A DNA stretch of 63,401 bases, counting the filler, from Octopus bimaculoides (Eukaryota): the NCBI RefSeq assembly GCF_001194135.2. It is 12 parts of 9 records of this genome, joined end to end, with 100 filler letters (N's around TTAATTAATTAA, not from the genome) between each part and the next. Parts side by side here need not be neighbours in the genome. Positions count along the whole stretch, not along the records: positions 19,990 to 29,582 come from NC_068982.1; positions 29,683 to 34,407 come from NC_069006.1; positions 34,508 to 43,175 come from NW_026322679.1; positions 43,276 to 56,298 come from NC_068983.1; 8 more parts are not named here. The stretch is one strand, 5' to 3'. Positions 26,427-55,488 of the stretch are shown in pieces; the first letter of the stretch is position 1, and the number at the start of each line of letters is the position of its first letter. The position numbers and the translations under genes were made by a program. The notes beneath the pieces were generated by a model. The model made no database searches. It was given only the letters and a program-made list of their open reading frames with translations, and was not told the origin of the DNA.

Positions 26427-27222
26427 AGGGTGCAAAATAGCACCTGCAATTGCTAGAAATAGGGGCTAAAAATAGAACTCAAATAACCACACAAAATCAC
26501 CAACATCATGAGATGTTCAGGGACTGTGAGCAGCAAGCCACATCTTGCTCCAGCAAAATAAAATTCACAGAATGAAGTAGTTTGATAAAACCCTATCGTG
26601 TGATTTCGAAATTTAACCAACATGTTTTTGTTTCTCATCAGGGGTTTTCCACAATTTACTCCAGATTGAAGAGCTAACTTACTTCCCATTTGCTCATGAG
26701 AGAAAAAAAAGATAAGTTGAACAGCAAGCACTAAAATTTGAAATGGTTAAAATGTATATAAAAATACAATTAGATATTATAACAGTAAATTAATATATCA
26801 TGATATATCAAATACACTATAATATTGATGGCTATAGCAATTAAAAGTCAAAACTGCAAAATACGTAGACAAGGGTGCAAAATAGCACCTGCAATTGCTA
26901 GAAATAGGAGCTAATAAATATAACTCAAATAGTCAAACAAAATCACCAACCTCATGAGATTTCGAAATCATGTGATAGGGTTTTATCAAACTACTTCATA
27001 TTGTGAGTTTTATCTCGCTAGAAAAAGATGCTGTGGCTTGCTGCTCACAGTCCCTGAACATGTCATGAAGTTGGTGATTTTGTGTGGCATTCAAGTTACA
27101 ATTTTTAGCTCCTATTTCTAGCAATTGCAGGTGCTGTTTTGCACCCTTATTTATGTATTTTGCCTTTTTGGTTTTTAATTGCTATAGCCACCTATATTAT
27201 AATGTATTTGAGATATCATAAT
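26427..27222. mobile_element. Tandem plus inverted copies of a ~445-bp ORF-less unit carrying a hammerhead ribozyme (retrozyme-like or PLE pseudo-LTR-like)
   Basis: AGGGTGCAAAATAGCACCTGCAATTGCTAGAAATAGG at 26427 and 26872 (period 445); inverted copy 26959-27222 forms a fold-back with 26795-26960. Confidence 0.85.
26587..26648 (-). ncRNA. Type I hammerhead ribozyme with a complete catalytic core
   Basis: AAAACCC CUGAUGA GAAA-(19 nt)-UUUC GAAA UC-ACAC-GA UA GGGUUUU: 7-bp stem I, G10.1-C11.1, 3-bp stem III, AUA cleavage triplet. Confidence 0.85.
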
Positions 27223-27269
27223 ACCAGCAGAGATACCCAGCGTTGCTCAGGATTAAAATGGCATAGCAT

Positions 27270-27550
27270 TTCATTGTTTTACTTGTTTCAATCATGTAAC
27301 AACAGTCATGCTGGAGCACTGCTTTAAGTCAAAGAATTCAACCCCAGGATTTATTCTTTGTAAGCCTAGTACTTGTTTTATCAATGTGTTTTGCCAAACG
27401 GCTAAGATACAGGGATGTAAACAAAGCAACATCGGTTGTCAAAACAATGGTAGGCGTACCAACGCACACACACACACACACACACACAAATATACACATA
27501 TATATACGACAGTCTTCTTTCAGTTTCTGCGTACAAAATCCACACACAGA
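27270..27550 (-). mobile_element. SINE family A lacking its head, abutted by an RTE insertion
   Basis: TTTTACTTGTTTCAATCAT...CTTTCAGTTTC.GCGTACAAAATCCACACACAGAGC. Confidence 0.8.
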
Positions 27551-27552
27551 GC

Positions 27553-28563
27553 TTTGACAAGGGACCTCTCACTCAGAGTAAAAGACAGACTGTATGACGC
27601 ATGTGTACGAACAGCCATGCTTCATGGCAGTGAAACATGGGCCGTAACTGCTGAGTACATGTGTAGGCTCGCAAGGAATGAAGCCAGTATGCTCTGATGG
27701 ATATGTAATGTCAGTGTGCATACTCGACAGAGTGTAAGTACCTTGAGAGAAAAGTTGAACTTAAGAAGCATCAGTTGTGGTGTGCAAGAGAGACGATTGT
27801 GCTGGTATGGTCATGTAGCGAGAATGGATAGGGATAGCTGTGTGAAAGACTGCCACACCCTAGCAGTTGAGGGAACCTGTGGAAGAGGTAGGCCCAGGAA
27901 GACTTGGGATGAGGTGGTGAGGCACAACCTTTGAACATTGGGCCTCACGGAGGCGATGACTTCTGACCGAGACCTTTGGAAATATGCTTTGCGTGAGAAG
28001 ACCCGGCAAGCCAAGTGAGACCTAAATCCAAGGTCTCTGCTAGGGGTGTAACCAGCCCACTTATGCGTACCTTCTTTCATTGGACACTAAACTCCGCTTC
28101 CAAAGACCTGTTGAGCAAGTGAAATCGAAATCGAGTTAAATTCGACGACTGGCACCCATGCCAACATCGTCTCCTTCATTGGACAGTAAACTTGGTTGTG
28201 AAGACCTGTTGGGGCAAGCGAAAGCAAAATCGTGATGGCACCTGTGCCCAGCGTCGCCTTCCTGGCACATGTAAAGACATTCGAGCAAGATCATTGCCAG
28301 TGCCGCTGGACTGGCTCCTGTGCAGGTGGCACGTAAAATACACCATTTTGAGCGTGGCTGTTGCCAGTACCGCCTAACTGGCCTTTGTCAGTGTAGCACC
28401 CACTACACTCTCGGAGTGGTTGGCGTTAGGAAGGGCATCCAACTGTAGAAACTCTGCCAAATCAGATTGGAGCCTGGTGCAGCCATCTGATTCACCAGTC
28501 CTCAGTCAAATCGTCCAACCCATGCTAGCATGGAAAGCAGACGTTAAACGATGATGATGATGA
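27553..28563 (+). mobile_element. 5'-truncated RTE LINE: RT C-terminus, long repetitive 3' UTR and (GAT)n tail
   Basis: LSLRVKDRLYDACVRTAMLHGSETWAV, LCWYGHVARMD, GTCGRGRPRKTWDEVV; ends GGACGTTAAAC-like followed by GATGATGATG. Confidence 0.92.
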
Positions 28564-53576: not shown

Positions 53577-54131
53577 ATATATTAGCAACAGAATCAGTAT
53601 TATCTATCCTCACTTAAATGTGGATGTTCTGTTAGAACAAAATGTTCTGTGGTAGATACCATAAGAGAAACTCTCATATTGGCTTTCAATGTGAAATGCT
53701 CTTTCATTAATACCACTGGCAGGGAGATAAGTCCCTGCTACCTCCAGTGCCAAGACCACCAGATCACATGAATTGACTTTCCTTGGTCTTATCAATGATG
53801 GATGCTCAATTGCTAGAGATAGCAGCGGCTCATCTCCCTGCCAGTGATATATAGAATAACGGTGCCAGATCAAGCACTGGTGCTACAAATAGCCATTGGG
53901 TTTTAAAAAATATATATATCAGCAACAGAGGCAGTATTAATCTCCCTGCCAGTGATATATAGAATAACAGTGCCAGAACAGGCACTGGTACTCCAATTAG
54001 CCAGTGAGCTTGTTAAATATATATATATGTATATGTATATATATATATATATATATTAGCGACAGAGGCAATATCAGTACCAAGATGTAATATCTATTTC
54101 CACTTAGACATGGATGTTCTGTTAGAACAAA
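53577..54131. repeat. Compound repeat: two ~107-bp tandem units between ~40-bp direct repeats
   Basis: TCTCCCTGCCAGTGATATATAGAATAAC.GTGCCAGA at ~53834 and ~53941; ATCTAT..CACTTA.A..TGGATGTTCTGTTAGAACAAA at ~53603 and ~54093. Confidence 0.75.
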
Positions 54132-54157
54132 CTATTATTAATATGGTTTCAAAGTTT

Positions 54158-54510
54158 TGGTTGGTGTGTTGGCTGAATTGTTATCACACCAGACAAAATG
54201 CTTAATGGTATTTCATCCATCTTTATATTCCGAGTTCAAATTCGCCAAGGTTTACTTTGCCTTTCATCTTTTGGGGTTGATAAAACAAGTACCTGTTGAG
54301 TTCTGGGGTTGACCTAATTGACTTAGTCCCTTCCCCAAAATTTCTAGCCTTGTTCCAAAATTCGAAACCAATATGGTTTCAAAGTTTGACACAAGGCCAG
54401 CAATTTTAGTGGTAAGTCAATTACATTGACTCCTCACCATACTCAACTGGTACTTATATTATATTAACCCTGAAAGGATGAAAAGTAAAGTTGACTTCAA
54501 CTGCATTTGA
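54158..54510. mobile_element. SINE B (+, 54158-54369) inserted into the tail of an antisense SINE B (54370-54510)
   Basis: 18-bp duplication AATATGGTTTCAAAGTTT at 54140-54157 and 54370-54387. Confidence 0.75.
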
Positions 54511-55164
54511 ACTTAGAATATATGTTAATGATATAAAGCAAAACGAAGAGGGAAGAATTCAGGATTTTGTTGGCTTATTTTGATCAGGCATCTATGAGCT
54601 TTTACTCCTTATCTATAACTATCACCTTTTTAATCTGTTCAAGAAGGATCAGTCAATTTAAAGCTAAGGTTTCCTTCAAATTCTTTAGACCTTCAGTTTC
54701 AGACACAGATTTTGACTATTAAGTTTGTCAAATACTTTAAAATAAATCTAAATATGTAATCGTGCATATTTTATGTTGGTAACTTTGTCAGGTTATTTAC
54801 ACATTATATTTGTGTAACACATTAACTGTGATTTGTAGGAACTCCATTTTAGGAAATAATGCTGCTTCAATAAACAGAAAGTGAGCACAGGTCATTGTAT
54901 TCCTGGCACTGCTATCTTGGAAACAATAGATGCCAATTATATTGATCTGTATTTCTCAGCCTTATACTTGTCTAATTCTAAAACTTTGACTATTCAAAGT
55001 ATAATCTACTTAATTTCTTTAAGTTTTATTGATGTAAGAAGTAATTAGTCTAAAACCTAACTGATGCATTTCACTTATAGTGCTATATATATATATATAT
55101 ATATATATATATATATATATATGGATACATACATACACACACACACACATATTTAATTCCATTG

Positions 55165-55488
55165 TCACTAATTGTGACTGAGAGTGCTAGGTAGCACCTA
55201 CATTGCTAGAAATAAGAGTTAAAAACCCTTAGAGCCACAAGAAAGCACATTTTATAAACTAACAGGGGAGATAACCACTCCACAATGAAACGAAATCACT
55301 ATAATAGACTAGTTTCACCTGAAAAGTACAAGCTCATCTGTAGTGACTACTCTATCGCTGGATGGTTTGGCTGGCAGTTATCTAACCTGTCATTATAAGA
55401 AAATGTGCTTTCTTGTGGTTCTAAGGGATTTTAACTCTTATTTCTAGCAATATAGGTGCTACCTAGCACCATCAGTTACAATTTGTGA
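55165..55488. mobile_element. Fold-back element with ~110-bp inverted arms and a central degenerate hammerhead
   Basis: 55165-55275 is the inverted repeat of 55377-55488; it shares TAGCACCT.CA.TTGCTAGAAATA.GAG.TA with the 26427 unit. Confidence 0.85.
55296..55346 (-). ncRNA. Degenerate minimal type I hammerhead motif (probably inactive)
   Basis: UCACUA CAGAUGA GCUUG-UACUUUU-CAGGU GAAA CUAG UC UAUUA UAGUGA: U4 reads A, stem III is the palindrome ACUAGU, GUC triplet, stem I offset by 5 nt. Confidence 0.6.

Follow-up and report, generated by a model that had tools for sequence, protein, structure and literature searches.

What kind of element produces a short repeat in which a hammerhead ribozyme motif stands beside an arm and an inverted copy of that arm? 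Three such elements, E1 (26427-27222), E2 (38900-39240) and E3 (55165-55488), occur in the 63,401-nt stretch of the Octopus bimaculoides genome analysed here (the window, made of 12 parts of 9 records of assembly GCF_001194135.2). We assign a probability of about 80% to the reading that the three are insertions written by the enzymes of Penelope-like retrotransposons (PLEs). This reading is carried by the observed geometry and multi-copy status, by a 3' end that is fixed and inversion points that vary, and by AT-rich flanks and a single 9-bp TSD. The coordinates of all features are collected in Table 1.

Table 1. Features in the window, with positions counted along the whole stretch.
Feature	Position	Strand	Description
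PLE remnant, RT thumb to linker	8757..9751	+	Broken and frameshifted; matches Hydra-1_Obim; interrupted by a 400-nt interspersed repeat (9096-9495), with an assembly gap at 9752
E1 3' arm	26417..26593	-	Downstream of cleavage site
E1 type I hammerhead	26587..26648	-	Descriptor search; only bulge-free exact-core match in window; stem I 7 bp, CUGAUGA, stem II 4 bp (G10.1-C11.1, 19-nt loop), GAAA, stem III 3 bp including A15.1-U16.1; predicted cleavage after 26594
E1 spacer, middle-copy tail to hammerhead	26649..26795	-	Found also in paralogous copies
E1 middle copy	26796..26960	-	5'-truncated direct repeat of arm (89 nt, 92%) plus ~75-nt extension (tail)
E1 head-to-head junction	26958..26969	not assigned	Perfect 12-bp palindrome
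E1 inverted 5'-truncated copy with tail	26959..27223	+	Begins at stem II end, without CUGAUGA
Solo fragment related to E2 tail	35984..36061	-	No hammerhead; stops at (TA)n run
E2 TSD, left 9-bp copy	38873..38881	+	Boundary comparison
E2 inverted copy with ~60-nt tail	38882..39011	-	
E2 reading frame	38892-38969		ATG start, 26 codons, within inverted copy
E2 minimal type I hammerhead	39077..39121	+	Stem I 3+2 bp, bulged, CUGAUGA, unpaired G, stem II 6 bp, GAAA, stem III rudimentary; predicted cleavage after 39116
E2 3' arm	39117..39240	+	Ends after ~8 codons of this frame, which here starts with the ATG at 39216
E2 TSD, right 9-bp copy	39237..39245	+	First 4 bases match element end too
Second solo fragment related to E2 tail	39960..40037	-	No hammerhead
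E3 3' arm with terminal box	55155..55275	-	Followed by (TG)n/(TA)n run
E3 decayed type I hammerhead	55294..55348	-	Stem I 8 bp, CAGAUGA (U4 changed), stem II 5 bp with wobbles, GAAA, stem III broken
E3 inverted arm copy	55377..55498	+	

Hammerhead motifs and inverted arms

The whole window and 20 shuffles of it were searched with a type I descriptor demanding an exact CUGANGA/GAAA/UH core, and the only matches in the window were those of E1 and E2, against 0.10-0.15 per shuffled window. The two laxities that admit the CAGAUGA core of E3 give 0.95 and 0.25 matches per shuffled window, so that the E3 hammerhead rests on its context. A sequence-only reading of the same DNA had placed a hammerhead in each element and expected such motifs to exceed shuffled controls, which holds for the intact motifs of E1 and E2 and fails for E3. 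An Rfam search returned no hammerhead family at E<=10, either for the whole window or for each element alone. This result and the E3 motif, which taken by itself lies within the shuffle expectation, would fit chance matches within unrelated repeats. It is, however, scarcely credible that chance placed both exact-core matches of 63 kb within fold-back elements, at the position expected of a PLE end, and G12 of the E1 hammerhead is altered in just 289 of 3215 depth units of the sequencing contigs, being retained in ~91%.

The inverted arms reported for the three elements are present in all of them, with 86-88% identity: 86.5% over 200 nt in E1 (26417-26612 against 26959-27157), 88% over 68 nt in E2 (38945-39011 against 39173-39240), and 106 of 122 columns in E3. 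The simple design thought to be common to the three survives as arms beside a hammerhead, but E1 is more complex, since its inverted copy is followed by a second direct copy, with a direct-repeat period of 445 nt. Elsewhere in the window, the stretch 53575-54131 contains direct and inverted repeats, and no hammerhead core (at most one mismatch) with a fitting fold after it.

Ends, copies and insertion geometry

The 3' arm of E1 stops right past a terminal box (26427-26461), and a short run of (TA)n/(ATC)n lies nearby. Sequencing contigs fall on the E1 stretch in numbers (625 from run X2 and 166 from run X18, which is another organism, part of this count being due to a neighbouring repeat, whose start lies at 27222-27226), most of them less than 95% alike, and one hammerhead position differs from the window in 49 and 22 of them, respectively. 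Position 27223 is the fixed 3' end of the family, behind which 19 contigs from X2 and 5 from X18 have loose ends leading into dissimilar AT-rich sequence. Opposite-strand joints lying more than a few bases inside E1, at varying places, make up 5 of the 15 joints listed, with one contig each; they are possibly mapping artefacts, because the reference itself has inverted copies. One X2 contig (record 9) covers 26468-26832, including the spacer, with 62 differences from the window; tail, spacer, hammerhead and arm are bridged by 1 of the 16 pieces listed. The majority letters of the family turn stem III into a near-perfect 10-nt palindrome. The E1 family is old and multi-copy; its flanks are AT-rich, its 3' end is fixed and its inversion points vary.

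The sequence-only reading had set fixed-length TSDs against PLE-style ends. E2 has its 9-bp TSD (a 9-mer is common to 24 of 3345 random window pairs) and E1 its fixed 3' end, but no TSD of at least 5 bp was found at the E1 boundaries, and E3 offers only 5-mers in microsatellite flanks. Together with the AT-rich flanks of the E1 family, these ends fit a variable TSD or an AT-rich or microsatellite target. Tails measure ~75 nt in E1 and ~60 nt in E2; none is resolved in E3.

The fold-back shape could also come from MITEs of DNA transposons, or from Helitron-type elements, with a hammerhead either captured or mimicked. A 9-bp duplication is compatible with some DNA transposons as well, and the short hairpin beside CTAG in the box of E1 and E3 may resemble a Helitron 3' end. 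This origin is nevertheless very improbable, given that the arms are unequal and the tails one-sided, that inner boundaries vary between copies and a TSD is present at one of three elements, that E1 has a third, direct copy, that homology continues beyond CTAG, and that a hammerhead lies upstream of the arm in 3/3 elements. The contigs on E1 already point to copies cut short at varying 5' positions and sharing a fixed 3' end, which speaks against this origin.

Insertion by PLE enzymes, in turn, finds close parallels in the literature. The published descriptions of endonuclease-bearing PLEs (Arkhipova et al. 2013, PMC3846280; Craig et al. 2021, PMC8557442; Frangieh et al. 2024, PMC11167929) include the inverted 5'-truncated copy, the partial tandem and the one-sided tail seen here (PMC8557442), as well as AT-rich targets (PMC11167929), to be compared with the AT-rich or microsatellite flanks in the present case. 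The pLTR described in PMC3846280 holds the first 12 codons, or 22 with the tail, and its insertions have a 9-bp TSD and palindromes at the inverted junction; E2 likewise has the start of an ORF inside its pLTR and tail, and a 9-bp TSD, and E1 has a junction palindrome. As for the ribozymes, PLE hammerheads are described with an unpaired base on the 5' side of a long stem II and with a palindromic stem III (PMC4209133). The former recurs in E2, whose stem III is rudimentary, and the latter in E1, where it is short; motifs standing singly in truncated copies are a further likeness. The differences are that E1-E3 lack RT or endonuclease sequence, that their tails are ~60-75 nt instead of the published 30-40 nt, that loop II of E1 is long (19 nt), and that their parents were not found. 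The available text of the PLE hammerhead account names no cephalopod families, and our literature search found no published account of the E1-E3 families in particular.

By analogy with these elements, the RNA template would carry a pseudo-LTR consisting of a type I hammerhead and then 100-250 nt, which would hold the site of PLE protein binding and of the start of reverse transcription. The GIY-YIG endonuclease would nick AT-rich DNA, and reverse transcription would begin at either of two internal sites, both fixed, and stop early, the distance between the sites being the tail, as published for PLEs (PMC11167929). A second, inverted, 5'-truncated copy would then be added head-to-head, hence the MITE-like fold-back. 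An ORF for a telomerase-like RT and GIY-YIG endonuclease is absent from E1-E3, and neither the E2 peptide profile nor the protein library yielded an autonomous partner.

Two lineages and their possible parents

By alignment, E1 and E3 are related through the conserved terminal box, and E2 is separate. The terminal homology of E1 and E3 extends over ~70 nt with a score of 52 (random mean 19.6, maximum 32), and E2 scores 19 and 25 against them, which is background. The longer box already noticed in two elements has three copies in E1 and two in E3, and is absent elsewhere in the window. CTAGCAAT does lie downstream of the predicted cleavage sites, as had been reported, by 138 (E1), 92 (E2) and 93-98 nt (E3); as a motif common to all three it does not stand, since the E2 inverted copy differs from it at 2 of 8 bases, three further occurrences lie outside the elements in the window, and E2 aligns at background level. 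Its presence in E2 is probably chance. No compensatory change was seen by eye in the box hairpin among the five copies. Searched for this box, metagenome contigs gave 13 matches with a longest similarity of 42-44 nt, barely beyond the pattern, and no hammerhead core within 200 nt upstream; they were taken as chance.

The terminal box and hammerhead shape of E1 may point to the Hydra clade of PLEs, a tentative placement, somewhat short of even odds, based on likeness by eye. Hydra elements are described as having canonical hammerheads with a stem III of 3-4 bp and a preference for (TA)n (PMC8557442). Four published consensus sequences of the clade appear, by eye only, to have a box of the E1/E3 shape near an end, in the same order (CTC triplet, short hairpin, then a GCAC-type motif). 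It follows the cleavage site by 40-50 nt in the clade, compared with 93-138 nt here.

The PLE remnant of the window, once suggested as the partner of the three elements, finds no support in that role. Its sequence identifies it as a broken copy of Hydra-1_Obim, an octopus PLE published with its own hammerhead (PMC8557442, File S2), to whose protein it is identical by eye at 15/15 and 38/46 residues in two stretches. Its DNA has no detectable similarity to E1-E3 (scores of 17-25, at background), and the hammerhead and 3' end listed for Hydra-1_Obim are unlike theirs (PMC8557442, Files S1, S2, S7). Pfam gave nothing significant for the remnant or for its homologue P0014, the protein search with its last piece and the PDB search gave no match, and the Atlas matches, all below 0.9, are leads only.

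E2 is quite likely the pLTR and tail of a different PLE, with 26 codons from the start of a reading frame included; it would be a derivative or else an autonomous element that was truncated. Its tail shows pS of 0.52-0.65 against pN of 0.15-0.20 in three non-independent pairs, and codon-position P values of 0.03-0.07 in a frame picked after inspection. These are 26 codons diverged under coding constraint, so E2 is not strictly ORF-less. The solo fragment at 35984..36061 is 69% identical in amino acids to the second one and 58% to E2. The E2 peptide profile matched 2 of 41 candidates, and 10 proteins in a library of 1.84 billion; all matches are 40-151 aa, none of them an RT-sized carrier, and the likeness of the short predicted proteins ends at about the same codon. 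The published N-terminus of Hydra-1_Obim is unlike the E2 peptide, and three short peptide words had no match in the PMC8557442 supplement, in which long sequence runs are incomplete.

Retrozyme-like features of E1 and what the elements mean

The claim that all three elements are ORF-less, which falls for E2 with its ATG and constrained codons in arm and tail, probably stands for the E1 unit. This unit (445 nt, 32% GC) has a longest ATG frame of 78 aa without a significant Pfam match, and we regard it, on balance, as a non-autonomous, ORF-less element; the evidence for the unit is mainly one contig, reaching 36 bases past the junction, among the pieces listed (871 more exist). The proposal of RNA-mobilised non-autonomous elements, not MITEs, thus holds as far as PLE-type insertion and, probably, E1 are concerned, with E2 perhaps a truncated autonomous element.

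The E1 family might instead be a true non-LTR retrozyme, whose tandem 445-nt units would be transcribed and then cleaved by one hammerhead after another, the pieces forming circles that PLE enzymes insert again. Size and GC content of the E1 unit lie within the published low-GC range of 150-450 nt, E1 has a canonical hammerhead whose stem III is palindromic, a partial tandem is expected under a model of reverse transcription around a circle (PMC4209133), and animal retrozymes reportedly derive from PLE pLTRs (Li et al. 2026, bioRxiv 10.64898/2026.07.22.740005). With the animal retrozymes described there and by Cervera and de la Pena (2020, PMC7229834), E1 shares the ORF-less low-GC unit, the type I hammerhead and a presumed dependence on PLEs. 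However, the working definition of a retrozyme in the same preprint requires two consecutive units with hammerheads, whereas each element in the window has a single complete hammerhead and no tandem appears among the listed joints and pieces; inverted copies are prominent instead. There is no stable self-paired fold either, the circular fold of the E1 unit, in this decayed copy, being no better than those of 60 shuffles (z = -0.73). Nor is there a sign of abundant or circular RNA: records matching E1 number 40 among 12.9 million in one run and 29 among 12.0 million in the other, many of them on the neighbouring repeat, with no joints and no ends at the predicted cleavage site, the sole pile of ends lying at 26885. 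This RNA test is weak, because ~6% of each cDNA run was read and such libraries can lose small circles. We consider a retrozyme origin improbable, and the circular-RNA system first suggested gains no support; the copies are old and largely silent.

Insertion by PLE enzymes agrees with what is known of the family: the published PLE insertion signature is this same fold-back layout, in which a hammerhead and a fixed 3' end are joined by an inverted 5'-truncated copy, a tail that is optional and a partial tandem, and a ribozyme end with a mirror copy has already been described in many animals. No new mechanism is revealed. A likely annotation error is corrected, as these fold-back repeats resemble MITEs and yet are retroelement ends, and cephalopods now supply examples of the connection that has been proposed between non-autonomous hammerhead elements and the ends of PLEs. 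The short conserved box at the terminus is a candidate recognition signal. A long shot is that E1 stands for a retrozyme-like parasite of cephalopods not yet described, an ORF-less element of 445 nt with a working hammerhead, which predates the split of at least two species and still yields circular RNA from its young copies, and that the box which E1 and E3 have in common with at least one further family is a conserved RNA signal for template recognition by Hydra-clade PLE proteins. If this were true, the cis-requirements of the Hydra clade would become directly testable through the terminal box.

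Inverted arms and hammerhead motifs

The fold-back repeats E1, E2 and E3 lie in repeat-rich animal DNA (4250 N bases in the window), and the inverted arms described by the sequence-only reading are present in all three, being 86.5% alike over 200 nt in E1, 88% over 68 nt in E2, and alike in 106 of 122 columns in E3. A type I hammerhead descriptor (exact CUGANGA, GAAA and UH, one bulge allowed), run over the whole window with 20 locally shuffled windows as control, matched twice, in E1 and in E2, where the shuffled windows averaged 0.10-0.15 matches, an enrichment of the kind that the sequence-only reading had asked for. 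The hammerhead claimed for each element holds for E1 and E2, with their exact cores, and less fully for E3, whose motif has an 8-bp stem I, a 5-bp stem II, a changed core (CAGAUGA) and a broken stem III. Under the two settings loose enough to let it in, shuffled windows yield 0.95 and 0.25 chance matches each, and the E3 hammerhead therefore counts through its position only. The Rfam models, also suggested as a check, returned 131 matches for the window and 1, 2 and 2 for the single elements, none of them to a hammerhead family. The hammerhead fold equals the minimum-energy fold in E2 and lies 5 and 8.5 kcal/mol above it in E1 and E3, respectively.

Read in the ribozyme sense, E1 runs from an inverted copy, which begins at the stem II end and takes in a ~75-nt extension, through a 12-bp palindrome at the head-to-head junction, a direct copy that is truncated at its 5' end and carries the extension too, and a 147-nt spacer, to the hammerhead and a final arm without the extension; its direct-repeat period is 445 nt. 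E3 comprises an inverted copy, the decayed hammerhead and the arm, with microsatellite runs on both sides. E2 comprises an inverted copy with a ~60-nt extension, a 65-nt spacer, the hammerhead and the arm, between 9-bp duplications; among 3345 random pairings of 40-nt windows, 24 have a 9-mer in common, and that of E2 sits at the element boundaries. The frame crossing the E1 hammerhead, which is also open in the inverted copy, has no Pfam match, carries a 1-base deletion at 26560 in 8 contigs, and is probably incidental.

Features of the window
Feature	Position	Strand	Content
E1	26417-27223		
E2	38882-39240		
E3	55155-55498		
Frame in E1	26453-26689	-	78 codons from ATG; stops at TAG within the terminal box (short sequence near the arm end, common to E1 and E3)
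Repeat adjoining E1	27222-27260 and beyond	+	separate, very abundant; starts exactly at E1 outer end; many contigs and most RNA reads begin at 27221-27228
Solo E2-related fragments	35984-36061, 39960-40037	-	
Repeat pair	39722-39878, 40164-40321		442 nt apart, on either side of a solo fragment
PLE remnant	8757-9751		
Repeat complex	53575-54131		PLE-like arrangement of direct repeats (periods of ~108, ~337 and ~490) and a short inverted stretch around (TA)n runs; CTAGCAAT occurs at 53809; hammerhead looked for and none found
Aquaporin-type exon	5066-5407	+	major intrinsic protein gene, Pfam MIP E 2.4e-21; 5328-5396 repeated in tandem at 5395-5463
SINE-like family	8028-8454, 9096-9495, 13200-13636, 38255-38689, 47857-48582, others		~430 nt, bipartite, inner microsatellite, highly repeated
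Fold-backs without hammerheads	43025-43175, 47857-48234, 48280-48582		
Decayed coding remnants	6428-7896, 19946-20560, 24061-26319, 41923-43175, 56507-56755, 59421-60326, 60495-60740		by eye, resembling LINE reverse transcriptases, LTR integrase/protease, Tc1-type transposase

Lineages, copies and the remnant

The sequence-only reading had placed CTAGCAAT downstream of the cleavage site in all three elements, and its positions and distances (138, 92 and 93-98 nt) stand, but not its status as a motif common to three families. Homology between E1 and E3 extends over ~70 terminal bases with a score of 52, reached by 0 of 1202 random stretches (maximum 32); E2 gives background scores of 19 and 25 against E1 and E3, the 8-mer is altered at two bases in E2's own inverted copy, and three further copies of it lie in the window outside the elements. 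Two lineages are therefore present.

An E1 stretch of 861 bases was compared at 80% likeness with 4 of 24 listed sequencing runs, including X2 and X18, the latter from another organism. It matched 625 contigs in X2 and 166 in X18 (515 and 148 of them less than 95% alike), counts that overstate E1 because some of these contigs come from another repeat, which begins at 27222-27226 and whose start looks like a candidate Helitron-type 5' end. One hammerhead position has another letter in 49 (X2) and 22 (X18) contigs, and therefore at least tens of paralogous E1 loci exist. The 3' end of the family is fixed, since 19 (X2) and 5 (X18) contigs stop at 27223 and continue into unlike AT-rich sequence. 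Five of the 15 joints listed connect opposite strands at differing inner positions, in one contig each, some perhaps as mapping artefacts; record 12 joins box plus tail head-to-head with a copy beginning in the spacer. Record 9, among 16 pieces listed, bears 62 differences along a course that takes in the tail, the spacer, the hammerhead and the arm, and extends 36 bases past the junction of tail and spacer; at least one other locus therefore has the 445-nt unit. The terminal box alone, followed by divergence, occurs in 10 (X2) and 7 (X18) contigs, with a divergent start resembling that of E3 (10/12 bases by eye); a further family carrying the box is indicated. By majority letters, E1 stem III forms a 10-nt palindrome that is almost perfect. 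G12 is altered in 289 of 3215 depth units, and the CUGAUGA positions are absent among the 40 variant rows listed.

The remnant, a broken Penelope-like element (PLE) proposed as the partner of E1-E3, is frameshifted and split in two by a repeat of 400 nt, and a gap cuts it off. By eye, its frames match two stretches of Hydra-1_Obim (15/15 and 38/46 residues) in the supplement of PMC8557442. The partnership was not borne out, because its DNA scores 17-25 against E1-E3, which is background (its 3' end, the relevant part, lies outside the window), and the Hydra-1_Obim 3' end and hammerhead published there differ by eye. With Hydra-1_Obim, the hammerhead of an octopus PLE has already been published.

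The E2 peptide

An ATG within the E2 arm opens ~8 codons in the direct copy and 26 with the extension, and both solo fragments encode related peptides; the repeats around one of them resemble, presumably, a TTAA-type DNA-transposon derivative. Third positions hold 10/18, 10/19 and 10/17 of the differences in three pairs (pS 0.52-0.65 vs pN 0.15-0.20; P 0.03-0.07), the pairs being non-independent and the frame picked after inspection. A UniRef gene model of Octopus bimaculoides carries the peptide; this model and Hydra-1_Obim, both from that species, were the nearest named sequences found. Neither 41 candidates nor a 1.84-billion library yielded an RT-sized protein with the E2 start. E2 would quite likely represent a pLTR (the hammerhead-bearing PLE terminal repeat) plus tail, holding the start of a parent ORF. 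Protein P0001, an O. bimaculoides gene model, has the 26-residue family peptide at its start and unrelated sequence thereafter; ten more short predicted proteins contain it, and spurious first exons seem to arise from the repeat.

Origin of the elements

The proposed retrozyme or circular-RNA system was not upheld. Compared with non-LTR retrozymes, as presented in PMC7229834, PMC7761336 and bioRxiv 10.64898/2026.07.22.740005, E1-E3 differ in tandem hammerheads and in fold (E1 unit as a circle, z = -0.73 vs 60 shuffles). Of the 12.9 million and 12.0 million RNA records in two runs, 40 and 29, respectively, matched the E1 stretch, with depth peaking on the neighbouring repeat; neither run has a joint there among those listed, and no ends fall at the cleavage site, the sole pile being six at 26885. 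This negative is weak, because it covers ~6% of each run and the libraries were cDNA. The accessible main text of PMC7229834 mentions neither octopus nor cephalopod, and the 35 genomes of the bioRxiv study include, by its available text, no mollusc.

A typical PLE insertion is a partial tandem that lacks its 5' part, and often a truncated copy in inverse orientation and a tail of 30-40 nt accompany it (PMC8557442); a pLTR may contain the first 12 codons, or 22 with the tail, within a 9-bp target-site duplication, and inverted junctions carry palindromes (PMC3846280). The tail spans the distance from one to the other of two internal sites where RT starts, AT-rich DNA is targeted, hammerhead cleavage is dispensable for in vitro insertion, and ends at the cleavage site were absent from RNA-seq data (PMC11167929). 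PLE hammerheads, mostly single and in truncated copies, have an unpaired base ahead of a long stem II and a palindromic stem III (PMC4209133). E1-E3 are like pLTR insertions in all four structural features tested, and are not autonomous PLEs. The geometry and the targets, the fixed position of the 3' end, the variation of the inner ends and the copy status were observed directly; the elements would have been written by PLE-type enzymes (probability about 0.8), and the E1 unit is fairly likely to be non-autonomous. Four Hydra-clade consensus sequences have, by eye, an E1/E3-shaped box near an end, and Hydra hammerheads share with E1/E3 a 3-4-bp stem III and (TA)n targets, likenesses that would tentatively place E1/E3 in that clade, as a lead only.

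Penelope is among the abundant coleoid repeats in PMC8967140, whose accessible text leaves ribozymes unmentioned. No description of these octopus families was found in the literature searched (Repbase, Dfam and subscription journals lying outside it), and they may already be catalogued. The feature in E1-E3 is real, and probably represents PLE-type pLTR insertions, a known kind.
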